From the NCBI GenBank assembly GCA_025361365.1, contig JANYAM010000218.1, forward strand, positions 1,642-65,641: a stretch of DNA of 64,000 nucleotides, written 5' to 3'. Shown here one piece after another: positions 7,965-62,503 of this stretch (the stretch's first letter is position 1; each line of letters begins with the position of its first letter). The translations under genes and the position numbers were made by a program. This DNA comes from Opitutus sp. (GTDB taxonomy: Bacteria > Verrucomicrobiota > Verrucomicrobiia > Opitutales > Opitutaceae). The notes beneath the pieces were generated by a model that saw nothing but the letters and a program-made list of their open reading frames with translations, was not told the DNA's origin and made no database searches.

Positions 7965-8022
7965 TGTGGGAGCGAGCTTGCTCGCGACTGGGCCGGGTGT
8001 CGCGAGCAAGCTCGCTCCCACA
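7965..8022. repeat. REP doublet
   Basis: tGTGGGAGCGAGCttGCTCGCgac (7965-7988) and its inverted partner gtcGCGAGCaaGCTCGCTCCCACa (7999-8022). Confidence 0.6.
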
Positions 8023-10537: not shown

Positions 10538-10718
10538 AACTCGAGCGCCCTGAAACGCGTCCGGCCCGTCAGCCATAGGCCCGGCGACGGCTGAAGGCCG
10601 CGTTTCACCTTCGTCCAGCCTCGGGAACAAGACCTGCTTCCCGGCCCTCTCATATTGCCGGCAGTTGCGGGTTGAAAGCCCCGGCCGGCTGCTTTTAGGT
10701 CACGTCCTCTCATCCCCT

Positions 10719-11852
10719 ATGTCCGTCCGTCCCCTGTCCCTTTTGTTCCGGCTCGCCCTCGGCGCCGGGGCCCTGGCCGCGAGCCTCGCCGCCCAGGACA
10801 CCATCAAGATCGGCGAATTCGCCTCGCTCACCGGCAAGGAGGCCGTCTTCGGCCAGAACGCCCACAAGGGCACCCTCCTCGCCATCGAGGAGATCAACGC
10901 CGCCGGCGGCGTCCTCGGCCGCAAGCTCGAGCTGCTCACCGAGGACGACCAGTCCAAGCCCGGCGAGTCCGCCACCGTCGTCAAGAAGCTCATCTCCCGC
11001 GACGGCGTCGTCGCCGTCCTCGGCGAGATCACCTCGGGCCGCACGCTGGAGGCCGCGCCGATCTGCCAGAACGCGAAGATCCCGCTGATTTCCCCCGGCG
11101 CGACCAACGTGTCCGTTACGGCCAAGGGCAACTACATCTTCCGCGTCTGCTTCATCGATGATTTCCAAGGCACGGTCATGGCGAAGTTCGCCCACGAAAC
11201 CCTGAAGCTCAACCACGTCGCCATTCTTTCCTCGGTCTCCTCCGCCCAGGCCGTCGGCCTGGCCAAATACTTCCGGGAACGCTTCACCGCCGACGGCGGC
11301 GCCATCGCGGCCGAGCCGAAATATGGCGAGGGCGACAAGGATTTTCGTGCCCAGCTCACCGCCATCAAATCCGCCGGCGCCGACGGCGTCTTCGTGCCGG
11401 GCTACTACGCCGAGGCCGCCCTCATCTGCAAGCAGGCCCGCGAACTCGGCCTGATGGTGCCGCTCTTCGGCATCGACGGCTGGGAGTCGCCCGAGCTCAT
11501 CCAGATAGGCGGCGCGGCCGTCGAAGGCTCCTATTTCTCCACCCACTACTCGCCGGAGAACCAGTCGCCCGCTGTCGTCGCCTTCAACACGCGCTTCAAG
11601 CAGCGCTGGGGCCTCGACACCAACGCACTCTCCGCCCTCGGCTACGATTCCGCCCTGGTCCTGATCGACGCGATCAAGCGCGCCGGCACAACGGACGGCC
11701 CGAAGCTGCGCGACGCCCTCGCCGCGACGAAGGACTTCGCCGGCGCCACCGGCCGCATCACCTTCGACGCCCAGCGCAACCCCACCAAGTCCGCCGTCGT
11801 CCTCACCGTGAAGAACGGCCGTTATGCCTTTGTCCAAGACGTTCACCCCTGA
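10719..11852 (+). CDS. ABC transporter substrate-binding protein, Leu/Ile/Val-binding family (paralog 1)
   Basis: Signal peptide, then DTIKIGEFASLTGKEAVFGQNAHKGTLLAIEEINAAGGVLGRKLEL, typical of the PF13458 family. Start at ATG 10719. Confidence 0.85.
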   Translation: MSVRPLSLLFRLALGAGALAASLAAQDTIKIGEFASLTGKEAVFGQNAHKGTLLAIEEINAAGGVLGRKLELLTEDDQSKPGESATVVKKLISRDGVVAVLGEITSGRTLEAAPICQNAKIPLISPGATNVSVTAKGNYIFRVCFIDDFQGTVMAKFAHETLKLNHVAILSSVSSAQAVGLAKYFRERFTADGGAIAAEPKYGEGDKDFRAQLTAIKSAGADGVFVPGYYAEAALICKQARELGLMVPLFGIDGWESPELIQIGGAAVEGSYFSTHYSPENQSPAVVAFNTRFKQRWGLDTNALSALGYDSALVLIDAIKRAGTTDGPKLRDALAATKDFAGATGRITFDAQRNPTKSAVVLTVKNGRYAFVQDVHP

Positions 11853-11865
11853 TTTTATCCTCTCC

Positions 11866-12981
11866 ATGAAAACTCCCGCCCTGCTCCTTGCCCTTGCCGC
11901 GACTGCGGCGCTCTCCGCCGCCGACCCCATCAAGCTCGGTGAATACGCCTCGCTCACCGGCAAGGAGGCCGGCTTCGGCCAGACCTCGCACCAGGGCGTT
12001 GTCCTGGCCATCGAGGAGATCAACGCCGCCGGCGGCGTCCTCGGCCGCAAGCTCGAGCTCACCACCGAGGACAATCAGACGAAGCCGGGCGAGTCCGCCA
12101 CCGTCGTCAAGAAACTCATCTCCCGCGACAAGGTCGTCGCCCTCATCGGCGAGGTCTCCTCGGGCCGCTCGCTCGAGGCCGCGCCCATCGCCCAGCAGGC
12201 GAAGATCCCGATGGTCGCCCCCGCCGCCACCAACCCGAAGGTCACCCAGACCGGCAACTACATCTTCCGCGTCTGCTTCATCGACCCCTTCCAGGGCACG
12301 GTCATGGCGAAGTTCGCCAAGCAGGACCTGAAGGTGAAGCGCGTCGCCGTCCTCTCCAGCGTCTCCAACGCCTACAGCCTCGGCCTCGCCAAGTTCTTCA
12401 AGGAAACCTTCACCGCCGGTGGCGGCGAGATTGTCACCGAGAAGAATCTCGCCGAGGGCGACAAGGACTTCCGCGCCCAGCTCACCGCCGTGAAGGCCGC
12501 GGGCGTCGACGCCGTTTATGTCCCCTGCTACTACACCGAGGCCGCCCTCATCGTCCGCCAAGCCCGCGACCTCGGCCTGACCATGCCGTTCTTCGGCGGC
12601 GACGGCTGGGAGGACGAGCAGCTCCTCAAGATCGGCGGCGAGGCGATGAACGGCTGCTATTACTCCACTCACTTCTCCGCTGAGAATACCGACCCGGTCG
12701 TCGCGGCCTTCACCGCGAAATACAAGGCGCGCTGGAACAACGAGTCCCCGGGCGCCTTCTCCGCCCTCGGCTACGACGCCGTCTACGTCATCGCCGCCGC
12801 CATCAAGCGCGCCGGCACGACCGACGGCCCGGCGCTGCGCGACGCCCTCGCCGCCACCAAGGACTTCCCGGGCATCAGCGGCACGACCACCATCGACAAG
12901 GACCGCAACGCCTCCAAGTCCGCCACGATCATCGCGCTCAAGGACGGCAAGGCCAAGTTCTTCAAGACCGTTTCCCCGTGA
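11866..12981 (+). CDS. ABC transporter substrate-binding protein (paralog 2)
   Basis: DPIKLGEYASLTGKEAGFGQTSHQGVVLAIEEINAAGGVLGRKLEL; high identity to paralog 1. Start at ATG 11866. Confidence 0.85.
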   Translation: MKTPALLLALAATAALSAADPIKLGEYASLTGKEAGFGQTSHQGVVLAIEEINAAGGVLGRKLELTTEDNQTKPGESATVVKKLISRDKVVALIGEVSSGRSLEAAPIAQQAKIPMVAPAATNPKVTQTGNYIFRVCFIDPFQGTVMAKFAKQDLKVKRVAVLSSVSNAYSLGLAKFFKETFTAGGGEIVTEKNLAEGDKDFRAQLTAVKAAGVDAVYVPCYYTEAALIVRQARDLGLTMPFFGGDGWEDEQLLKIGGEAMNGCYYSTHFSAENTDPVVAAFTAKYKARWNNESPGAFSALGYDAVYVIAAAIKRAGTTDGPALRDALAATKDFPGISGTTTIDKDRNASKSATIIALKDGKAKFFKTVSP

Positions 12982-12983
12982 CG

Positions 12984-13110
12984 CGCAAAATCGCAAAGGC
13001 CAAAGGTCCAAACGCCAAAGAAATCCGAAATGAAGTCGCTCTCTGTTTTTAGTCATTTTGCCCTCCGCGCTCTGTTTGGTGTTTTGGCGTTTGGCGTTTG
13101 GAATTTTGCG
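12984..13110 (+). repeat. Long imperfect hairpin enclosing the start codon and signal-peptide codons of paralog 3
   Basis: Left arm 12984-13020 is (CGCAAAA TCGCAAA GGCCAAA GGTCCAAA CGCCAAA). Right arm 13074-13110 is (TTTGGTGTTTTGGCGTTTGGCGTTTGGAATTTTGCG). About 29/37 positions are complementary by hand alignment. Confidence 0.5.
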
Positions 13111-14178
13111 TCCGCTGAGGACGCCATCAAGGTCGGCGAATACGGCGCGTTCTCCGGCAAGGAGGCCGCGTTCGGGCTCTCCGCACGCAAGGGCGCCATC
13201 CTCGCCTTCGAGGAGGCCAACGCCCATGGCGGCGTCCTCGGCCGCAAGGTCGAGCTGCTCACCGAGGACAACCAGTCCAAGGCCGGCGAGTCCGCCACCA
13301 TCGCCAAGAAGTTCGTCTCCCGGGACAAGGTCGTCGCCGTCCTCGGCGGCAACCCCTCCAGCAATTCGCTCGAGGCCGCGCCCATCCTGCAGAACGCGAA
13401 GATCCCGATGATCGCGATCTCGTCGACCAACCCGCGTGTCACCGAAATCGGCAACTACATCTTCCGCGTCTGCTTCATCGACCCGTTCCAGGGCACCGTG
13501 CTGGCGAAGTTCGCCAAAGATACGCTGCACGCCAAGCGCGCCGCCATCATCACCTCCGTCAACAATGCCTATAGCGTCGGTATCTCGAAGGTGTTCCGGG
13601 AAAAATTCACCGCCGCGGGCGGCGAGGTCGTGATCGAGCAAAAGCACAGCGAGGGTGACAAGGACTTCCGCGCCCAGCTCACCGCCATCAAAGCCGCGGG
13701 TGTCGACTGCATCTTCCACTCGAGCAACTACACCGAGGGCGCGCTCATCTGCATCCAGGCCCGGCAGCTCGGCTTCACCGGCCCTCTCTTCGGCGGCGAT
13801 GCCTGGGAGGCCCCGCAGCTCATCGAGATCGGCGGCGCGGCCGTCGAGGGCACCTACTATTCCACCCACGCCTCGCCCGAGTCCACCGCGCCGGTGATGC
13901 AGAATTTCATCAAGAAATTCCGCGCCCGCTGGGACGGCGAGACTCCCGACAGCATCGCCGCCCTCGGCTACGATGCCGCCGCCCTGCTCTTCGACGCCCT
14001 CCAGCGCGCCGGCACCACCGATAGTGCCAAGCTGCGCGAGGCCATTGCGACGACCAAGGATTTTTCCGGGGTCACCGGCCGCATTACCATCGACCAGGAC
14101 CGCAACGCGACCAAGTCGGCGGTCATCCTGACGGTCAAAAACGGCAAATTCGCCTACGTCGAGACGATCGATCCCTGA
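13030..14178 (+). CDS. ABC transporter substrate-binding protein (paralog 3)
   Basis: DAIKVGEYGAFSGKEAAFGLSARKGAILAFEEANAHGGVLGRKVEL; same family as paralogs 1 and 2. Confidence 0.85.
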   Translation: MKSLSVFSHFALRALFGVLAFGVWNFASAEDAIKVGEYGAFSGKEAAFGLSARKGAILAFEEANAHGGVLGRKVELLTEDNQSKAGESATIAKKFVSRDKVVAVLGGNPSSNSLEAAPILQNAKIPMIAISSTNPRVTEIGNYIFRVCFIDPFQGTVLAKFAKDTLHAKRAAIITSVNNAYSVGISKVFREKFTAAGGEVVIEQKHSEGDKDFRAQLTAIKAAGVDCIFHSSNYTEGALICIQARQLGFTGPLFGGDAWEAPQLIEIGGAAVEGTYYSTHASPESTAPVMQNFIKKFRARWDGETPDSIAALGYDAAALLFDALQRAGTTDSAKLREAIATTKDFSGVTGRITIDQDRNATKSAVILTVKNGKFAYVETIDP

Positions 14179-14208
14179 TTAGCCCGGATGGGCGAGGCCT
14201 TCCGGCTA

Positions 14209-14646
14209 GTTGAGAGTTGAGTGTTGAGAGGTGAGAGACTCGACTGATGGAGGCATGTTCAATTTCGAAAAACTGGAGGTCTGGCACAAAGCCGTAGCTT
14301 TCGCTGGCTTGGTCTACCGCCTGAGCAAAGGCTTCCCGACTGACGAACGTTTCGGCCTGACTAACCAGATCCGCCGGGCTGCCATTTCAATCGCATCCAA
14401 CATCGCTGAAGGTTCGGCGCGCCCTCCGGCTGATTTTGCCAAATTCATCGGCTATGCCACTGGCTCCGTTTACGAGGTCATCACTCAGGCCATCGTGGCC
14501 CGGAACGAGAGATTTCTAGGAGGCCCTGAATACGAGTAACTTTACCGTGACGCAGACGAGATTTCCCGCATGCTCAGTGGCCTGAGAAAATCCCTTGAGT
14601 AGCATCGTTTCTGCTCTCAACTCTCATCCCTCAACTCTCAACTCTC
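14209..14646 (+). mobile_element. IVS-like cassette: 29-33 nt inverted repeats flanking a four-helix-bundle gene, inserted between the binding-protein and livH cistrons
   Basis: Left arm GTTGAGAGTTGAGTGTTGAGAGGTGAGAG (14209-14237). The reverse complement of the right arm (14614-14646) matches it at 26/29 positions. The interior has visibly lower GC than the flanks. Confidence 0.5.
14255..14602 (+). pseudogene. Four-helix-bundle protein (23S rRNA intervening-sequence protein family, TIGR02436-like) with an in-frame TAA
   Basis: MFNFEKLEVWHKAVAF...ASNIAEGSAR is typical of the family. TAA lies at 14537-14539. The same frame continues LYRDADEISRMLSGLRKSLE to TAG 14600-14602, which looks like the family's usual C-terminus. 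Confidence 0.7.
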
Positions 14647-14650
14647 CAGA

Positions 14651-15541
14651 GTGTCCGAATTCCTGCAGCAACTTCTCAACGGCCTGTCCCTCGGGGCCAT
14701 CTATGCGCTCATCGCGCTCGGCTACACGATGGTCTACGGGGTCCTGCGCTTCATTAACTTCGCGCATTCGGACGTGTTCATGGTCGGCGCCTTCATCGGC
14801 TACTACATGGGCAAGCTCGTGCCGGAAAACACGGTCTGGGGCGGCCTGATCGTCCTGGTCGTCGCGATGCTCGGTTGCTCCGTGATCGGCATGGTCATCG
14901 AACGGCTGGCCTACCGGCCACTGCGCGGCGCCGCCACGCTTAACGTTCTCATCACCGCCATCGGCGTCTCGCTGCTCCTGGAATATTCGGGCCAGGTCTT
15001 CTTCGGCGCCACCCCGCGCACCTTTCCGGCGGTGTTCCCTTCGGTCAACTTCACGCTCGGCGGCCTGGTCATCTCTTCCAACCAGGTCGTGGTCATCGTC
15101 GTCACCGCGCTGCTCATGGTCGGCCTGCAGGTGATTGTCTACCGCACCAAGATCGGCACCGCGATGCGCGCCGTCTCGCTCAACCCGAAGGCCGCGCAGC
15201 TGGTCGGCGTCAACAACGACGTCGTCATCTCCTTCACCTTCGGCCTCGGCTCCGCCCTCGCGGCCGCCGGCGGCATCCTCTACGCGCTTAACTATCCCTC
15301 GATCGACCCGCTGATGGGCGTCATGCCCGGCCTCAAGGCCTTTGTCGCCGCCGTGCTCGGCGGCATCGGCAATATCCCCGGCGCCGCCCTCGGCGGCCTG
15401 CTGCTGGGCACGGTCGAGACGTTCGTGAACGGCAGCCAGTGGTCGACCTACAAGGACGCCATCGCGTTCGCGATCCTCATCATCATCCTGCTCTTCCGGC
15501 CGGCCGGCCTGCTGGGCAAAGCCACCATCGAGAAGGTCTGA
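14651..15541 (+). CDS. livH: Branched-chain amino acid ABC transporter permease
   Basis: GTG start. LNGLSLGAIYALIALGYTMVYGVLRFINFAHSD is a LivH hallmark. Confidence 0.9.
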   Translation: MSEFLQQLLNGLSLGAIYALIALGYTMVYGVLRFINFAHSDVFMVGAFIGYYMGKLVPENTVWGGLIVLVVAMLGCSVIGMVIERLAYRPLRGAATLNVLITAIGVSLLLEYSGQVFFGATPRTFPAVFPSVNFTLGGLVISSNQVVVIVVTALLMVGLQVIVYRTKIGTAMRAVSLNPKAAQLVGVNNDVVISFTFGLGSALAAAGGILYALNYPSIDPLMGVMPGLKAFVAAVLGGIGNIPGAALGGLLLGTVETFVNGSQWSTYKDAIAFAILIIILLFRPAGLLGKATIEKV

Positions 15542-15547
15542 TTATTT

Positions 15548-15665
15548 ATGGCCACAAAGAGTCACAAAAAATCATTCCTGCCGGCCGACACCTGCGTCGC
15601 GCCTATAGGCGCGCGGAAGATCGACGCCGAAGCCCAGGATAATTTTTGTGCCTTTTCGTGGCAAA
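15548..15665. mobile_element. 118-bp MITE-like palindromic element, CACAAA family, copy 1
   Basis: Arms ATGGCCACAAAGAGTCACAAAAAAT and ATTTTTGTGCCTTTTCGTGGCAAA. Core GCGTCGCGCCTATAGGCGCGCGGAAGATCGACGC. Confidence 0.6.
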
Positions 15666-15691
15666 CCGGTTTGGGAAACCTTCGCTGAGCC

Positions 15692-16636: not shown

Positions 16637-16656
16637 TGCGGTTTTTAAATCATTTT

Positions 16657-16774
16657 ATGGCCACAAAGAGGCGCAAAGAATTGTTCGTGCCGCCTGTCAT
16701 CTGCGTCGCGCCCATAGGCGCACTGAAGATTACCGCCGCAGCCTCGGGTGTTTTTTGTGCCTTTTTGTGGCAAA
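16657..16774. mobile_element. 118-bp MITE-like palindromic element, CACAAA family, copy 2
   Basis: Arms ATGGCCACAAAGAGGCGCAAAGAA and TTTTTTGTGCCTTTTTGTGGCAAA. Core CTGCGTCGCGCCCATAGGCGCACTGAAGAT. Same length as copy 1. Confidence 0.6.
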
Positions 16775-16803
16775 TCAATCTGGAGCCTTCCATCTAGCGT
16801 CCC

Positions 16804-17592
16804 GTGCCCGCCCTTCTCCAACTCAACCAGGCCACGATCAAGTTCGGCGGTCTCACCGCCGTCAACGCGGTCGACTTTACCGTCAACGACGGCGAACTGG
16901 TCGGCCTCATCGGCCCCAACGGCGCGGGCAAGACCACCGTCTTCAACCTGATGACCGGCGTCTACCAGCCCACCTCCGGCTCCATCATGTTCAACGGCCA
17001 GCCGCTGGCCGGCCTGCGCGTCAACGAGATCGTCGAGCGCGGCATCGCCCGCACCTTCCAGAACATCCGCCTCTTCGGCTCGCTCTCGGTCTTCGACAAC
17101 GTCCGCGTCGCCTGCAACCTCCACCGCGGCACTTCCCCGATCCAGTCGCTGATCCGCATGGGCGCTTTCAAGCAAGACGAAGCCGAGGTCACCAAACGCG
17201 CCGAGGAGCTGCTCGAAATCTTCAACCTCCGCCGCTTCCGCGACGCCGAGGCCAAGAGTCTGCCGTATGGCGAACAGCGCCGCCTTGAGATCGTCCGCTG
17301 CCTCGCGACCAAGCCCAAGCTCCTCCTCCTCGACGAACCCGCCGCCGGCATGAACCCGACCGAGAAGGTCGAACTCGTCCGCCTCATCCAGCAGGTGCAG
17401 AAACAATTCGGCCTCTCCGTCCTGCTCGTCGAGCACTCGATGAAGGTCGTCATGGGCGTCTGCCAGCGCATCGCCGTCCTCGACTACGGCGTGAAGATCG
17501 CCGAGGGCAACCCGGCCCAGATCCAGTCCGACCCGAAGGTCATCGAGGCCTATCTCGGCGAGGATCACCAGAAATCCCTTTCCCATCACTAA
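16804..17592 (+). CDS. livG: ABC transporter ATP-binding protein
   Basis: Walker A GPNGAGKTT, signature LPYGEQRRLEI, Walker B LLLLDEPAAG. Confidence 0.9.
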   Translation: MPALLQLNQATIKFGGLTAVNAVDFTVNDGELVGLIGPNGAGKTTVFNLMTGVYQPTSGSIMFNGQPLAGLRVNEIVERGIARTFQNIRLFGSLSVFDNVRVACNLHRGTSPIQSLIRMGAFKQDEAEVTKRAEELLEIFNLRRFRDAEAKSLPYGEQRRLEIVRCLATKPKLLLLDEPAAGMNPTEKVELVRLIQQVQKQFGLSVLLVEHSMKVVMGVCQRIAVLDYGVKIAEGNPAQIQSDPKVIEAYLGEDHQKSLSHH

Positions 17593-17596
17593 TTTT

Positions 17597-17680
17597 AAAA
17601 CCGCTAATTGGCGCTAATCTCCGCTAATCATGACTAGTCCAGTCCCGGATTAGCGTAAATTAGCGAAGATCAGCGGTTAA
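17597..17680 (+). repeat. Intercistronic word-built hairpin (CGCTAAT words)
   Basis: AAAACCGCTAATTGGCGCTAATCTCCGCTAATC, an 18-nt loop, then GATTAGCGTAAATTAGCGAAGATCAGCGGTTAA. About 25/33 positions are complementary. Confidence 0.55.
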
Positions 17681-17689
17681 ATTCTAGGA

Positions 17690-18397
<708 letters not shown>

Positions 18398-27024: not shown

Positions 27025-29082
27025 ATGCCTCCCAAACGCATTGTCATCATCGGCGGAGGCTTTGGCGGGGTGAAGTGCGCCCAGACCCTCCGCAGCCAGC
27101 TCCGCCCGGGCGACGCCGAGCTCATTCTCTTCAACAAGGAGAATCACCTGGTCTTCAGCCCGCTGCTGGCCGATGCCGTCGGCTCGTCACTGAGCCTCGA
27201 CGATGTCATCGTGCCCCTCCGCCAGCTCCTGCCGGGCGTCCAGTGCCGCACCGAGGAAGTCCGCAACGTGGATCTCGCCGGCAGCCGGATCGAATACGAG
27301 AGCCACGACGGCCAGCCGCGCCACCTCGACTACGACCACGTCATCCTCGCCTGCGGCAACATCTCCAACCTCAACGTCGTCCCGGGCATGGCCGACCACG
27401 CCTTCCCGCTGAAGACCGTCGGTGACGCCGCCGTCCTGCGCACCCATGTCCTTTCCTCGATGGAAAAGGCCGAGGTCTGCGACAACCCGGAGAAACGCCG
27501 CTGGTATCTCTCGTTCGTTGTCGTCGGCGGCGGCTATAGCGGCGTCGAGACCGCCGGCGAGATCAACGACCTCGTCCGCTCCAGCCTGCGCTTCTATTCC
27601 AACATCCGCGACGACGACGTCACCGTGACGCTCATCCACTCGCGCGACCAGCTGCTGCCCGAGATCAGCCCGCAGCTGCGCGAGTTTGCCCGGACGAAGA
27701 TGGAAAAGGCCGGCGTCACCATGAAGCTCAACGCCCGCGTCATGCTCGCCACCGGCGAGGGCGTGGGCCTGAAGGACGACTTCGTCCGCGGCGGCACCAT
27801 CGTGTGCACGATCGGCAGCACCATCGCGCCGGTCGTCGACCGGCTCGACACGCCGAAGGAGAAGGGCCGCATCCTGACCGACCCCGACATGCGCCTGCGC
27901 GGCCGGACCAACGCCTGGGCCATCGGCGACTGTGCGAGCATTCTCAACGCCCATGACAACCAGCCCTCGCCGCCCACCGGTCAGTTCGCCGAGCGCCAGG
28001 GCCGGCAGGTCGCGAACAACATCATCCGCACCCTCGCGGGCGAACCAACGCGCCCGTTCTCCTTCAAGGTGCTCGGCCAGCTTTGCTCCATCGGCGGCCA
28101 CAGCGCCGTGGCGGAGATGTTCGGCTTTAAACTCTCGGGCTTCCTCGCGTGGTTCACCTGGCGCGGGGTCTACCTCTTCAAGCTCCCGTCGCTCTCCCGC
28201 CGCATGCAGGTCGGCTTCGACTGGGCGTGGTTGCTGATCTTCCCGCGCGACCTGAGCTGTATCAAGACCGACGTCACCGAGCGCATCTCGCACGCGCACT
28301 ACGAGCCGGGCGACTACATCATCAAGCAGGGCGAGCCGCCGTCCGGCTTCTACGTCATCGAGCAGGGCGAGGTGGAGATCGTGCGCGCCCTCCCCGAGAA
28401 ACCCGCGGGCGAAGTCATCGCCACGCTCGGCACGGGCAACTTCTTCGGCGAGCAGGCGCTGATCAACAACAAGCCGCGCGGCGCCTCCGTCCGGGCCCGC
28501 ACCCCGGTCGAGGTCGTGGTCATGGGCCGCAACGTCTTCACCACCATCTCCAAGTCCCTCGCGCCGCTGCGCAGCGCGCTCACCGCCGCCATCACCCGCC
28601 GCTCCTCCGCGGCCTGGCAGGAGCGCCCGGCCGTGCTCGCCGCGTTGCGCGAGTTCAAGCTGGCCGACTTCATCGAGCCGGCCCCCGCCCCGCTGCTCAA
28701 GCCCACCGACTCGCTCTACGAGGTCACGCACCAGTTCGCGCGGCATCCGTCCGATTTCTTTTTCGTCTCCCCCGACGGCGCCACGCTCGTGGGCATGATC
28801 ACACTGACCGACCTGCTGCGCGCCCAGAGCAACGGCGTGAAGCCCGAGACCCCGCTCGCCGACTTCATGAAGAAGGACCCGACCATGCTCGCCGCCACGG
28901 ACAGCGCGCTGATCGCGGCGTCGGCCTTCCGCGAGCACGGGTTCAAGACCATCCCCGTCGTGGCCGACAAGACCGGCCGCCGCATCGTCGGCGTCGTCCG
29001 CGTCCGCAAGCTCATTGCCCGCGTCCTCGAGGTCGTGCCACCGCCGACCGGAATGACCGCGCCACCGCAACCGGGCACTTAG
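27025..29082 (+). CDS. NDH-2-type FAD/NAD(P)H oxidoreductase fused to a cyclic-nucleotide-binding domain and a CBS pair
   Basis: IVIIGGGFGGVKCA and VVVGGGYSGVETAGE dinucleotide folds, and WAIGDCA. Then the cNMP motif FFGEQALINNKPRGASVRA. Then two CBS-like repeats (VGMITLTDLLRA; VGVVRVRKLIARVL). Confidence 0.75.
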   Translation: MPPKRIVIIGGGFGGVKCAQTLRSQLRPGDAELILFNKENHLVFSPLLADAVGSSLSLDDVIVPLRQLLPGVQCRTEEVRNVDLAGSRIEYESHDGQPRHLDYDHVILACGNISNLNVVPGMADHAFPLKTVGDAAVLRTHVLSSMEKAEVCDNPEKRRWYLSFVVVGGGYSGVETAGEINDLVRSSLRFYSNIRDDDVTVTLIHSRDQLLPEISPQLREFARTKMEKAGVTMKLNARVMLATGEGVGLKDDFVRGGTIVCTIGSTIAPVVDRLDTPKEKGRILTDPDMRLRGRTNAWAIGDCASILNAHDNQPSPPTGQFAERQGRQVANNIIRTLAGEPTRPFSFKVLGQLCSIGGHSAVAEMFGFKLSGFLAWFTWRGVYLFKLPSLSRRMQVGFDWAWLLIFPRDLSCIKTDVTERISHAHYEPGDYIIKQGEPPSGFYVIEQGEVEIVRALPEKPAGEVIATLGTGNFFGEQALINNKPRGASVRARTPVEVVVMGRNVFTTISKSLAPLRSALTAAITRRSSAAWQERPAVLAALREFKLADFIEPAPAPLLKPTDSLYEVTHQFARHPSDFFFVSPDGATLVGMITLTDLLRAQSNGVKPETPLADFMKKDPTMLAATDSALIAASAFREHGFKTIPVVADKTGRRIVGVVRVRKLIARVLEVVPPPTGMTAPPQPGT

Positions 29083-29136
29083 GTAGGGCGGTGACTCCGC
29101 TCACCGCCGTGGCGCGGAACGGAGTCCGCGCCCTAC
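29083..29136. repeat. REP doublet
   Basis: GTAGGGCGGTGActccgcTCACCGCC followed by GGCGCGGAacggagTCCGCGCCCTAC, starting at the nucleotide after the NDH-2 fusion stop. Confidence 0.55.
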
Positions 29137-29205
29137 CTTATGTCCCGAAACTCTGTTTGCCAAACCGCCGCCCTGAAGTAGCTTCAACGCTTCACTTTCC
29201 GGCCG

Positions 29206-32997: not shown

Positions 32998-34449
32998 ATG
33001 CCTCTCTCCCCGCTGCTCCCCGCCGACGCCCTCGCCGCCAACTTCACCGACCTCAAGCCGCCGCTCCGGCCACAGGAAGCCTTCGTCGAGGCCAGCCGCT
33101 GCCTCTACTGCTTCGACGCGCCGTGCATCATGGCCTGCCCGACGGGCATCGATATCCCGGCCTTCATCAAGAAAATCGCCTTCGGCAACCCGGCCGGCGC
33201 CGCCAAGACCATCCTCACCGCCAACATCCTCGGCGCCTCCTGTGCCCGCGTCTGCCCGACCGAGGTGCTCTGCGAGGGCGCCTGCGTCCTCGACGACCGC
33301 GACGAGCAGCCGATCATGATCGGCCGCCTGCAGCGCTACGCCACCGACTACGTCACCGAGCGCGGGCTCAATGTCCTGCCCCAGCCCCCGGCCAAAAAGT
33401 CCGGCCAGAAGATCGCCGTCATCGGCGCCGGTCCCGCCGGCCTCGGCTGCGCCGCCGAATTGGCGCAGCTCGGCCACAGTGTCACGATTCTCGAGCGGCA
33501 GAAGCAGGCCGGTGGCCTCAACACCTACGGCATCGCCTACTACAAGATGAAGCCGCAGGTCAGCCTCGCCGAGGTAAAGCTCGTCCAGTCGCTCGGCGTC
33601 GAGCTGCGCACGGGCGTCGCCGTCGGCCAGCATGTCACCATCGCCGAGTTGGAGAAAGAATACGACGCGCTCTTCGTCGGCGTCGGCCTCGGCGCCGCCA
33701 CGCGGTTGCACATCCCGGGCGAGGAGCTGCCCGAGGTGGTCGACGCCCTTGAGTTCATCTCCCGAATCCACACCGACCCGCTCCACACGGTGCCGGTCGG
33801 CCACCGCGTCGCCGTCATCGGCGCCGGCAACACCGCGATCGACGCCGTCACGCAGTCGAAGCGCCTCGGCGCCGAGCGGGCCTTCATCGTCTACCGCCGC
33901 GCCGAGGGCGACATGTCCGCCTACGATTTCGAATACGAGCACGCCAAGCACGACGGCGCGCAGTTCGTCTTCCACGCCATGCCAGTCGAGGTCGTCGCGA
34001 CCAACGGCCATGTCTCCGGCCTCAAGCTGGTGCGCACCCAGCTCGTCAAAGGGAAGCTCTCCCCCGTCCCCGGCACCGAGTGGATCGAGCCCTGCGATCT
34101 CGTGCTCAAGGCCGTCGGCCAGGAAAAACAGGTCAAGCTGCTGCGCGGGCTTTTCCCCGAGCTGGTGGTCGACGAGCGCGGCGTCATCGCCCACGACCCA
34201 CTCACCGGCCAGACCAACCTGCCGCACGTCTTTGTCGGCGGCGACTGCGGCAACGGCGGCCGCGAGGTCGTCAACGCCGTCGGCGAGGGCAAGAAGGCCG
34301 CGCACGGCATCCACGCTTTCCTCACGTCGCAGACGGCCGAACCTCCCGTCCAGCCCTCGCGCCTCGGCGCCAAGCAAGGCGCCACCGGCTCCGGCCTGCT
34401 CCACCCCATCCGCGCGCAAGAGCTCGAGGCCGCGCTCAAAGCCAAATGA
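32998..34449 (+). CDS. preT: NAD-dependent dihydropyrimidine dehydrogenase subunit PreT (GltD-like)
   Basis: Fe-S Cys motifs (CLYCFDAPC, CARVCP) and two dinucleotide folds (IAVIGAGPAG, VAVIGAGNTA). Start at ATG 32998. Confidence 0.8.
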   Translation: MPLSPLLPADALAANFTDLKPPLRPQEAFVEASRCLYCFDAPCIMACPTGIDIPAFIKKIAFGNPAGAAKTILTANILGASCARVCPTEVLCEGACVLDDRDEQPIMIGRLQRYATDYVTERGLNVLPQPPAKKSGQKIAVIGAGPAGLGCAAELAQLGHSVTILERQKQAGGLNTYGIAYYKMKPQVSLAEVKLVQSLGVELRTGVAVGQHVTIAELEKEYDALFVGVGLGAATRLHIPGEELPEVVDALEFISRIHTDPLHTVPVGHRVAVIGAGNTAIDAVTQSKRLGAERAFIVYRRAEGDMSAYDFEYEHAKHDGAQFVFHAMPVEVVATNGHVSGLKLVRTQLVKGKLSPVPGTEWIEPCDLVLKAVGQEKQVKLLRGLFPELVVDERGVIAHDPLTGQTNLPHVFVGGDCGNGGREVVNAVGEGKKAAHGIHAFLTSQTAEPPVQPSRLGAKQGATGSGLLHPIRAQELEAALKAK

Positions 34450-34452
34450 TTT

Positions 34453-34566
34453 TAGCCACAAAAAGTCACAAAGGGATTTGTCCAGCAGCCGTGAAGCTTC
34501 CGCGCGCCTATAGGCGCCTTGAGGCTTTAACCGGCTCCCATTTTTTTGTGTCTCTTCGTGGCCAAC
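34453..34566. mobile_element. MITE-like palindromic element, CACAAA family, copy 3 (core inverted relative to copies 1 and 2)
   Basis: Arms TAGCCACAAAAAGTCACAAAGGG and TTTTTTTGTGTCTCTTCGTGGCCAA. Core GAAGCTTCCGCGCGCCTATAGGCGCC is the reverse complement of the copy-1 core. Confidence 0.6.
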
Positions 34567-40970: not shown

Positions 40971-41051
40971 GACAGAATGAACAAAATGAACAGAATTGAG
41001 GGTTGTTGCTTCAGGAACGAAACCCATTCTGTAAATTCTGTTCATTCTGTC
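40971..41051 (+). repeat. Intercistronic word-built hairpin (GAATGAACA words)
   Basis: GACAGAATGAACAAAATGAACAGAAT, a 29-nt loop, then ATTCTGTAAATTCTGTTCATTCTGTC. Confidence 0.6.
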
Positions 41052-62091: not shown

Positions 62092-62503
62092 CTAGTTCCG
62101 CAGCCGATAAGCCGGATTTTGTTGGGCACCGCGAACGGCGCCGTGATCTTCATTTCTCTAGGCACGCCCGAAAGCGCACCTCTCCAGGCTGCCGGCTTGC
62201 GCCGGCGTCTGAAGTGCGACTAACCCGGGACTGTCCGACGGGCCGCCGAGTCCCCTATTTAGTCTTGCACCGGATTGGGTTTTTCATGCCGCCGTCGTTG
62301 CCTTCAGCGCGGTGGGCTCTTACCCCACCTTTTCACCCTTACCTCGCGGTTGCCCGCGGGGCGGTATATTTTCTGTGACACTATCCGTCAGGTCGCCTTG
62401 AAGCGCCCTGCCCCCGTTTTCACGGGGAATCCCGCCCTATGGTGTCCGGACTTTCCTCTCCTGGTTCAAAGAACGCGGAGCGAAGATCTGGCTCCGAAAC
62501 TAG
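62092..62503 (-). ncRNA. rnpB: RNase P RNA, bacterial type A
   Basis: Minus strand contains GAGAGGAAAGUCCGGACACC (P4 5' strand), GGUAAGGGUGAAAAGGUGGGGUAAGAGCCCACCGCG, and ACAAAAUCCGGCUUAUCGG (P4 3' strand). P1 forms between CUAGUUUCGGAGCC (5') and GGCUGCGGAACUAG (3'). Confidence 0.85.

Follow-up and report, generated by a model that had tools for sequence, protein, structure and literature searches.

The 64,000-nucleotide stretch of Opitutus sp. DNA analysed here ('the window'; contig JANYAM010000218.1 of assembly GCA_025361365.1) contains a liv operon in which three livK-type genes are followed by livH, livM, livG and livF. Between the last of the livK-type genes (livK3) and livH, a gene of the TIGR02436/PF05635 four-helix-bundle family is bracketed by two arrays of tandem heptamers that are inverted with respect to each other (Table 1). 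This family came to light first in open reading frames (ORFs) within the intervening sequences (IVSs) of some 23S rRNAs. The cassette formed by the gene and its two arrays is the subject of this analysis.

Among all inverted repeats in the window with arms no more than 700 nt apart, the pair at this junction is the longest. Its 37-nt arms are 84% complementary and enclose 376 nt, and the 29-nt inverted repeat described in an initial annotation of this DNA forms their core. The core of the left arm (14208-14237) consists of four tandem heptamers, AGTTGAG AGTTGAG TGTTGAG AGGTGAG, followed by AG. Each arm holds four to five units with a period of 7 (the threshold applied was at least three per side), and the two arrays converge within intergenic sequence between co-oriented ORFs. 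The word GTTGAGAGTTGAG, with up to two mismatches allowed, has seven matches in the window where 0.83 would be expected, and all seven fall inside the arms. Local alignment of one flank of the gene with the other gives a score of 45, compared with 14.3 +/- 2.1 (maximum 22) for mononucleotide-shuffled flanks of loci of this type. The insert was said to be lower in G+C than its surroundings, which is the case: its G+C content is 53-58%, against 62-69% in the flanking genes.

In RNA folding predictions the arms pair around the ORF in both the minimum-free-energy (MFE) and the centroid structure (-175.4 kcal/mol, z = -2.7), so that complementary termini form a long stem around the ORF, as in an IVS. 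The stop codon of livK3 lies 29 nt ahead of the heptamer array, and the right arm abuts the start codon of livH, upstream of which there is no purine-rich Shine-Dalgarno sequence. An equivalent of the small GC-rich hairpin that follows livK3 occurs at the same position in many orthologous loci, the palindromes in L004-L039 having been spotted by eye in the sequences. Promoter and terminator scans of the cassette call nothing inside it. An intrinsic terminator was considered and rejected because the stem is not followed by a T-run. Searching the cassette against Rfam yields nothing meaningful, the single match being to a microRNA and far below threshold. No rRNA is detected in the window by Rfam, and the cassette is not an insertion in a 23S rRNA helix. 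The sole Rfam match in the window is a bacterial RNase P RNA of class A on the minus strand (62092-62499, 233 bits).

The gene opens like its relatives and stops early. Its frame is closed by TAA at codon 95 and then continues for 20 codons to a TAG. The product as encoded scores 86.8 bits against TIGR02436 (profile positions 1-81 of 109) and 95.5 bits against PF05635 (positions 1-87), where the family cut-offs are 24 and 33.8 bits, respectively. The conceptual read-through product scores 108.1 bits over positions 1-109 of 109 and 112.3 bits over positions 1-106 of 106. The tail after the TAA therefore adds 21 bits to the TIGR02436 match and completes the profile. The locus is a member of this family by descent, with a truncated product; both the family assignment made earlier and the expectation that the family C-terminus would align beyond the stop are borne out, the latter by profiles and protein alignment alike. 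More than 5000 homologues are found, and the closest of them are 115-116 amino acids long, 75-83% identical, collinear and attributed to Opitutaceae. The start MFNFEKLEVW is common to all homologues of 115 amino acids.

Position 95 is glutamine in most of the closest homologues. In one relative (L124) the DNA reads GAA CAA CTT TAC where the window has GAG TAA CTT TAC, and the difference between CAA and TAA corresponds to a single C-to-T transition at this codon. The tail itself is identical to the C-termini of the homologues P0001, P0008, P0013 and P0021. An AlphaFold2 model of P0001, which is 83% identical and collinear (mean predicted local distance difference test score, pLDDT, 95.1), places helices at residues 4-24, 35-54, 58-84 and 90-114; by this model helix 4 has 25 residues, and the stop deletes 20 of them. 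As encoded, the product could form three helices rather than the four that define the fold. The closest solved structure is that of Xanthomonas XCC0516 (PDB 2GSC, deposited as five chains; E = 1e-19), followed by a BT homologue (2RLD, E = 3e-4). Identical DNA and an identical 94-residue product occur in GCA_043724365.1 and in a Logan contig of SRR22198310, and the TAA is likewise present in L001 and L002. The stop is thus found in three assemblies and is not an artefact of one of them, although all three may derive from one population. A recent mutation would be expected to leave the tail intact, and the likeliest status of the gene is that of a recent pseudogene. The four-helix-bundle protein is most likely a dead passenger at this locus while the stem remains.

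The flanking genes are named from their best matches and Pfam domains. Both of these genes, the two of the operon that were scanned, fall short of the cut-offs set by NCBIfam (NF011933, 145.6 bits against 477; NF008011, 220.6 bits against 379). On the identical locus L001, Pfam recognizes Peripla_BP_5/6 in livK3 and BPD_transp_2 in livH. The three tandem livK-type genes occupy 10665-14178 and have diverged from one another, and the paralogue that takes the last place, adjoining the cassette, varies between relatives.

Table 1. Features of the livK3-livH junction and word-built or palindromic hairpins elsewhere in the window
Feature	Position	Strand	Basis or remarks
Left (5') arm	14201..14237	+	Repeat search; word search; pairs with right arm in RNA fold
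Truncated four-helix-bundle (TIGR02436/PF05635) ORF	14255..14539	+	ATG at 14255, 94 codons plus TAA; profile matches
Premature TAA, codon 95	14537..14539	+	Protein alignment; DNA of relatives
In-frame remainder, LYRDADEISRMLSGLRKSLE plus TAG (14600-14602)	14540..14602	+	Equivalent to helix 4 residues 96-115 of intact relatives
Right (3') arm	14614..14650	+	About five CTCAACT-type heptamers, complement of left arm; repeat search
Small GC-rich hairpin	14179..14209	+	Immediately 3' of livK3 stop; separate helix in MFE and centroid folds
livK3, third tandem livK-type substrate-binding gene	13030..14178	+	Upstream host cistron; NF011933, 145.6 bits
livH (permease), GTG start	14651..15541	+	Downstream host cistron; NF008011, 220.6 bits
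Word-built hairpin, CCAAAG	12992-13110		Between co-oriented genes; right arm inside livK3 signal-peptide coding region
Hairpin element copy, CACAAAG-type arms	15548-15670		livH-livM gap
Hairpin element copy, CACAAAG-type arms	16650-16775		livM-livG gap
Hairpin element copy, CACAAAG-type arms	34449-34565		
Word-built hairpin, CGCTAAT	17592-17690		Between co-oriented genes
Word-built hairpin, GCGGAA	18417-18497		After livF
Word-built hairpin, CACGAA	37853-37923		Between co-oriented genes
Word-built hairpin, GAACAGAAT	40971-41051		Between co-oriented genes
Perfect 24-nt palindromic hairpin, TGTGGGAGCGAGCTTGCTCGCGAC plus complement	7965-8022		
Imperfect 37-nt hairpin	29072-29147		

Counterparts of this cassette were collected in a profile scan with the subfamily, which was limited to one genome per species and returned 80 loci. 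In all of the approximately 40 loci from genomes of Opitutaceae or Opitutales, the gene lies between the last livK and livH with the same layout. When loci from metagenomes are added (22 intact and 2 disrupted), the cassette is found at this junction in about 62 Opitutaceae-type loci, nearly all of them flanked by word-built inverted repeats as had been anticipated for other copies of the gene. The shared layout begins with the last livK and often a small GC-rich hairpin, after which approximately four heptamers and 5-20 nt precede the ATG of the four-helix-bundle gene. On the other side, the stop codon of the gene is followed by 10-25 nt, approximately four complementary heptamers, and then, after 0-15 nt, the GTG or TTG of livH. 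Two arm dialects are seen among these loci, AGTTGAG and AGC-N-N-AG (the GAGC type). The LivH proteins encoded next to the cassette site in these relatives are 59-97% identical to that of the window.

A second scan, anchored on LivH, gives a view of the junction that does not depend on the presence of the gene. It provided about 70 assessable loci whose LivH proteins are 78-97% identical to that of the window. Intact cassettes are present in 22 and disrupted ones in 2. About 16 loci have bare gaps of 35 nt or less, and about 12 have a segment of 60-100 nt that often contains the motif cgATTGACcc. Others retain the right arm only, with or without a gene fragment (L084, L106, L109/L113, L126 and L135), and in L094 and L095 the junction is occupied by an unrelated hairpin built of the word CACGAAA. 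In three relatives the LivH proteins are 97% identical (L083, L084 and L085): two of them lack the cassette, and L084 keeps a solitary right arm. When L083 is compared with the window, homology stops at 14191 and restarts at 14652. Together these loci indicate that the cassette is old at this site but has often been gained, replaced or lost. Strict vertical inheritance from a fixed livK-livH site is weakened by the LivH-anchored loci without cassettes and by poor agreement between four-helix-bundle and LivH distances.

The motif cgATTGACcc accompanies a pyrimidine-rich livH leader in ten cassette-less loci (L083, L085, L086, L089, L097, L108, L112, L115, L123 and L142). It resembles a -35 box, but a promoter scan of L083 calls nothing.

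The gene has been damaged independently in several lineages. One copy has a stop at codon 78 (L119) and three carry frameshifts (L039, L042 and L044). In L124 and L155 the ORF is disrupted and is recovered by tblastn as two pieces each, and deletions from the 5' side in L106 and L109/L113 have left the C-terminus alone. Decay as it is observed in these relatives yields solitary right arms and pieces of the gene; neat hairpins are not among its products.

Several comparisons show that the arms evolve together with the gene as a unit. The left arm of a locus aligns to its own right arm with a mean score of 41, to the right arms of other loci with 31 and to shuffled sequence with 14.3, and the ranks of the true partners are skewed to the best. 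Arm dialects cluster on an unweighted pair group (UPGMA) tree of the four-helix-bundle proteins and are scattered on a clustering of LivH; a permutation test of between-type against within-type distances gives p = 0.0005 for the former and p = 0.77 for the latter. The two sets of protein distances show only a weak correlation (Mantel r = 0.17, p = 0.046). Synonymous divergence (dS) of the four-helix-bundle genes is approximately 2.7 times that of livH, which could reflect either exchange of cassettes or weaker codon bias. By a rough Nei-Gojobori estimate, the median nonsynonymous divergence (dN) of the genes is 0.25 against a dS of 1.56 that is near saturation. In general the protein evolves under purifying selection, but losses of it are frequent. 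Among twelve arms of the AGTTGAG dialect, a central mismatch recurs at position 15 of 30, a point against a view based on RNA alone.

The layout is not confined to liv operons. Four-helix-bundle genes surrounded by inverted heptamers occur in at least four phyla, and probably in more, both at operon junctions and behind stable-RNA genes. In approximately 26 of 41 non-liv loci, the gene is flanked by an inverted repeat whose score exceeds those of all shuffled controls. When the 110-nt flanks of 76 genes are searched for their best tandem period, a period of 7 is returned for 70 upstream and 61 downstream flanks, compared with 22 of 152 shuffled flanks (14%) and 12 of 141 control segments located 700 nt away. 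The heptamer word tracks the clade of the protein, and not the host operon, across phyla. The word GAGTGGC is found in Brevundimonas and several Planctomycetes, AGGGATG-type words in Nitrospirota and Gemmatales, and AGTAACC in one metagenome-assembled genome (MAG) of Nitrospirota and one of Pseudomonadota. AGTCCAA is used in a MAG labelled Actinomycetota, and a hexamer, AGTGTG, in two MAGs of deltaproteobacterial type. Operon partners confirmed by Pfam on either side of such cassettes are cysD and cysN, agmatine deiminase and a carbon-nitrogen hydrolase, GlcD-type and GlcF-type genes, GspC and GspD, and an ABC ATPase and MlaD. In a scan of 40 non-liv loci with Rfam, none lies in rRNA.

Orthologues of XCC0516 in Xanthomonas and Stenotrophomonas (L163-L166) reside in a cassette between accB and accC. 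On the accB side, the stop codon is followed by 5 nt, the array GGGAATC GGGAGTG GAGAATC GGGAATC, and 14 nt before the ATG of the gene. On the accC side, 15 nt separate the stop codon of the gene from ATTCCCC ATTCCCG ACTCCCT ATTCCC, which is followed at once by the ATG of accC. Two plasmids of cyanobacteria have versions whose heptamer arms resemble short tandemly repeated repetitive (STRR) sequences and in which the gene is antisense to its hosts. On plasmid pNe_5 of Nostoc edaphicum (L167) it lies between nrdA and nrdB, antisense to both, with arms of eight (AGTAGGG/AGTGGGG) and five (CCCTACT) units that abut the start of nrdB and the stop of nrdA. On a plasmid of Calothrix PCC 7716 (L168), such arms enclose an antisense gene between those for an ABC ATPase and an HlyD-type protein.

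A different genomic context is exploited in Planctomycetes, where closely related genes are located on the same strand as stable-RNA genes and 150-250 nt downstream of them (L061, L064, L066, L068, L070-L072 and L075-L082). The hosts are tRNA-Ala(GGC/CGC), tRNA-Pro(TGG/CGG/GGG) and transfer-messenger RNA (tmRNA) genes, and at least six different genes for tRNA or tmRNA are followed by one and the same type of cassette. In the loci that were inspected, a complete (AGTAGAG)n/(CTCTACT)n hairpin stands between the RNA gene and the ORF.

Two further arrangements were seen in the course of this survey. At L041 and L080 there are arrays on both sides of the gene in direct rather than inverted orientation, which may reflect tandem cassettes. 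At L040 (3435-5313), a four-helix-bundle gene lies approximately 600 nt from a CRISPR array with 29 repeats (RF01315), echoing the published co-occurrence of PF05635 and cas genes. In one survey, a PF05635 gene between cmr3 and cmr2 was read as Cas-associated (PMC3936711); it may be another such insertion.

Hairpins without genes are common in the same neighbourhood, and each intercistronic gap of the liv operon in the window holds one built of tandem words. Three hairpins of the window are copies of one element of approximately 115-125 nt with CACAAAG-type arms and the conserved core GCGCGCCTATAGGCGC; the copies in the livH-livM and livM-livG gaps are 83% identical to each other, and the element looks like a dispersed repeat family akin to transposable elements of the miniature inverted-repeat kind (MITEs). 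Two other hairpins, one a perfect palindrome and one imperfect, do not contain tandem words and look like repetitive extragenic palindromic (REP) elements.

The initial annotation raised the possibility that the short hairpins are emptied or non-autonomous relatives of the gene-bearing cassette, and this idea survives in part. Within the window, the words of the gene-less hairpins are unrelated to GTTGAGA, their periods are 8-11 and not 7, and tblastn finds no trace of four-helix-bundle gene remnants in them, so the link to the cassette in this genome is one of design only. The decay seen in relatives, which leaves solitary right arms, also does not produce such hairpins. Elsewhere the relationship is closer. 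In L016, L104/L105 and L127, the livH-livM gap holds a gene-less hairpin made of the same heptamers as the arms of the locus's own cassette, and in L138 the heptamers of such a hairpin are related to those of the cassette but distinct. The right arms of hairpin and cassette are nearly identical in L016 and L104. Comparison of the L016 hairpin with the inner ends of the cassette finds few shared bases, too few to count as a gene remnant. In Xanthomonas, published gene-less pairs of inverted GGGAATC arrays use the same heptamer as the arms of the XCC0516 cassette. These similarities support a family relationship between cassette arms and some gene-less hairpins, whichever of the two came first.

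The explanation favoured here, at a probability of about 60%, is that the locus is an IVS-type cassette in an mRNA operon: a gene without a promoter of its own, bracketed by inverted arrays of about four heptamers. In the polycistronic transcript, the arms would pair into an imperfect stem of approximately 30 bp that closes off the 376-nt insert and brings the livK3 stop codon back beside the livH start codon. The logic would be the same as for an IVS at the tip of an rRNA helix, where the insertion is tolerated. Such a stem might make the insertion tolerable for the operon, either because livH translation stays coupled to that of livK3 or because the livH start stays accessible. A ribosome terminating at livK3, for example, could open the base of the stem beside the livH start codon. 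By analogy with 23S rRNA IVSs, the stem may also be a double-stranded target for RNase III, and cleavage would free the insert and part the livK message from the livHMGF message. The pyrimidine-rich right arm may double as the leader of the downstream gene, taking the place of a Shine-Dalgarno sequence upstream of livH and accC. Such a role would explain why solitary right arms survive after the cassette is lost.

Several observations weigh against this explanation. RNase III processing of cassettes embedded in mRNAs is extrapolated from rRNA IVSs, and a stable stem that abuts the start codon of livH could inhibit initiation rather than help it. Arm mismatches were also checked for an excess of sense-strand G-U wobble pairs, a signature of selection at the RNA level, and this candidate signature was not found (35 G-U against 58 A-C/C-A). 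What maintains the pairing could therefore be a process acting on DNA, such as conversion between arms, instead of selection on RNA. Arms of the GAGC dialect often pair at five of the seven positions in each unit and leave the two variable positions unpaired, so their conserved feature may be a periodic motif rather than a continuous helix. The cassette is missing from approximately two-thirds of the LivH-anchored relatives, including the three with 97% identical LivH proteins (L083, L084 and L085), and is therefore dispensable for the operon. Approximately 15 of the 41 non-liv loci have no clear inverted partner within 120 nt. Finally, the antisense genes on the Nostoc and Calothrix plasmids demonstrate that host transcription is not always usable.

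A rival explanation is a mobile element that acts at the level of DNA, in which the arrays are terminal inverted repeats or protein-binding sites and the RNA stem is a by-product. A pentameric protein that binds its cognate array could promote the spread or maintenance of both cassettes and gene-less hairpins, much as a transposon does for MITEs. The behaviour of arms and gene as one unit agrees with this scheme, as does the way the word follows the protein clade and not the host operon or phylum. So do the weak correlation with LivH and the elevated dS of the gene, and the alternation of presence, absence and replacement among relatives that are 92-93% identical in DNA. The same scheme would account for one type of cassette behind so many tRNA and tmRNA genes in Planctomycetes, for gene-less hairpins with the cassette's own word in the neighbouring gap of L016, L104 and L127, and for the use of the XCC0516 cassette's word in the 186 GGGAATC arrays (70 inverted pairs) of Xanthomonas. 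The arrays typically have four to five units and the protein is a pentamer. Polymorphism at the liv junction and spread over multiple sites in other lineages do show that some form of mobility exists.

Other observations speak against such an element. No direct repeat resembling a target-site duplication is visible where the arms end (14200/14651), and profile searches find no transposase, nuclease or recombinase domain in the only ORF of the cassette. The copy number and sequence of the arms drift in the manner of simple-sequence repeats. The cassette occupies one fixed junction while LivH diverges down to approximately 60% identity, tblastn detects a single four-helix-bundle copy in the 64-kb window, and the other hairpins there differ in word and period. 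A DNA-level element is judged improbable, although it is the strongest competitor of the RNA stem.

It is distinctly unlikely that the stem is an ordinary intercistronic hairpin of the host that happens to carry the gene in its loop as an incidental passenger. Such a hairpin would set the ratio of binding protein to membrane components through mRNA stability, processing or translational coupling, and REP elements act likewise in malEFG. The word-built hairpins in every intercistronic gap of the liv operon fit this proposal, as do the unrelated CACGAAA hairpin at the same junction in L094 and L095 and the retention of right arms after gene loss. Heptamer arrays at start codons in Beggiatoaceae have been proposed to regulate translation (PMC4679880). 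However, the arm words track the clade of the four-helix-bundle protein and not the operon, meaning that the arms arrived together with the gene. Purifying selection acts on that gene in most lineages, and many relatives have a gap of 20-30 nt with no hairpin at all.

The weakest alternative, that the TAA is decoded or harmless and the gene works through read-through or as a 94-residue product with three helices, is suggested by the reproducibility of the stop in three assemblies and by the 20 intact codons beyond it that match those of relatives, but it is very improbable given that a recent mutation predicts the intact tail, most of helix 4 is removed, no recoding signal is evident, and unrelated stops and frameshifts have arisen in copies from other lineages. 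UAA is also the least leaky stop codon in E. coli. The choice left open earlier between fresh inactivation and read-through is tipped towards inactivation by the C-to-T change, the loss of helix 4 and the independent damage elsewhere.

A broader proposal, put forward tentatively and with considerable doubt, is that IVS proteins and heptamer arrays are two halves of one widespread system. The pentamer would recognize its cognate array, autonomous cassettes would reside in loops of transcripts that are processed or structured (rRNA helices, tRNA and tmRNA trailers, and operon junctions), and these cassettes would be the source of gene-less STRR and GGGAATC hairpins. The livK-livH cassette would then be a decaying autonomous copy.

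The pattern across phyla is more interesting than the locus in the window, which is ordinary in one respect, the gene there being a recent pseudogene. Separate descriptions exist of three things: the ORFs of 23S rRNA IVSs; the large family of orphan proteins labelled 'four helix bundle' or 'S23 ribosomal', one with a crystal structure and with Avd as a relative; and the over-representation of intergenic heptamer repeats in Xanthomonas, cyanobacteria (STRR) and other bacteria. The results suggest a single phenomenon behind all three, a gene cassette with inverted heptamer arrays on both sides, placed precisely between cistrons or behind stable-RNA genes. If so, these proteins gain a testable nucleic acid partner in their own heptamer arrays, and an origin is offered for heptamer hairpins that have been unexplained since 1990. 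It would also show a way for an operon to accommodate an insert of 400 nt between genes that are essential and translated together, accB and accC for example. Because Xanthomonas can be cultured and is tractable, and the structure of its protein is solved, these questions can be tested directly. In the literature searchable in full text, coverage of which is incomplete, no paper was found in which flanking heptamer arrays are connected with PF05635 genes that lie outside rRNA.

How the cassette relates to known systems can be summarized by a series of comparisons. Avd, the accessory protein of diversity-generating retroelements (DGRs), has a homologous pentameric four-helix-bundle fold, and its profiles give weak matches here. 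Membership in that group was rejected on scores (PF22296, 17.5 against 40 bits; NF033474, 16.2 against 80) and because its neighbours are liv genes; unlike a DGR, the locus has no reverse transcriptase, template repeat or variable repeat nearby. REP elements, bacterial interspersed mosaic elements (BIMEs) and RNase III sites also form hairpins in polycistronic mRNAs, as in malE-malF and the T7 early mRNA. The position of the cassette is like that of the malE-malF hairpin, an intercistronic stem between a highly expressed binding-protein gene and genes for membrane components. Those hairpins differ in being short, in having no gene in the loop and in lacking arms of tandem heptamers.

Intergenic heptamer repeats of Xanthomonas, Nostoc/Calothrix and Beggiatoaceae are more similar. 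They have approximately four tandem units, lie mostly between co-oriented ORFs and near start or stop codons, and often form convergent pairs. X. campestris has 186 intergenic GGGAATC arrays, 70 cases of which are paired and convergent, and these and the GGGGA(C/T)T (STRR-type) arrays of Nostoc have been interpreted as G-quadruplex formers (Rehm et al. 2015, PMC4692102). TAACTGA arrays in Beggiatoaceae often end 1 nt before start codons (MacGregor, PMC4679880). A search by term finds no mention of S23 or four-helix proteins in either paper (PMC4692102 and PMC4679880), yet repeat #15 of Rehm et al., between bccP (XCC0517) and XCC0516, is the left arm of the XCC0516 cassette. The arrays of the window differ from GGGAATC and STRR repeats, which have been treated as G-quadruplex or regulatory sequences, in that they are the arms around a gene and their word is not G-rich. 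The XCC0516 protein, a homopentameric toroid (PDB 2GSC; cited in PMC4990558), belongs to the same kind of cassette, and is only approximately 40% identical, with another host operon and another heptamer word.

The closest relatives in design are the ORF-containing IVSs of 23S rRNA in Leptospira, Coxiella burnetii, Brucella and Haemophilus, which encode the same protein family ('S23p', PF05635). For this comparison we rely on the description of the Coxiella IVS (PMC4990558), whose terminal stem of 28 bp has GACAGAT three times on its 5' side, in a copy number that varies between strains. RNase III cuts this IVS at the first repeat, and its S23p ORF is decaying (PMC4990558). Cassette and IVS alike place a decay-prone ORF within complementary termini that give a stem of approximately 28-30 bp, and in Coxiella, as here, the stem is built of tandem heptamers. 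The stem-plus-gene layout noted earlier in a protein-coding operon thus resembles an IVS more closely than had been claimed. Like an IVS, the cassette has no promoter call of its own and rides on the transcript of its host. Cleavage by RNase III has been demonstrated for rRNA IVSs and would apply to the livK-livH cassette by analogy only. The hosts are different, since rRNA IVSs interrupt helix 25 or 45 of 23S rRNA and the cassette occupies a junction between protein-coding genes. Its excision would split an mRNA, where excision of an IVS fragments a ribosome.

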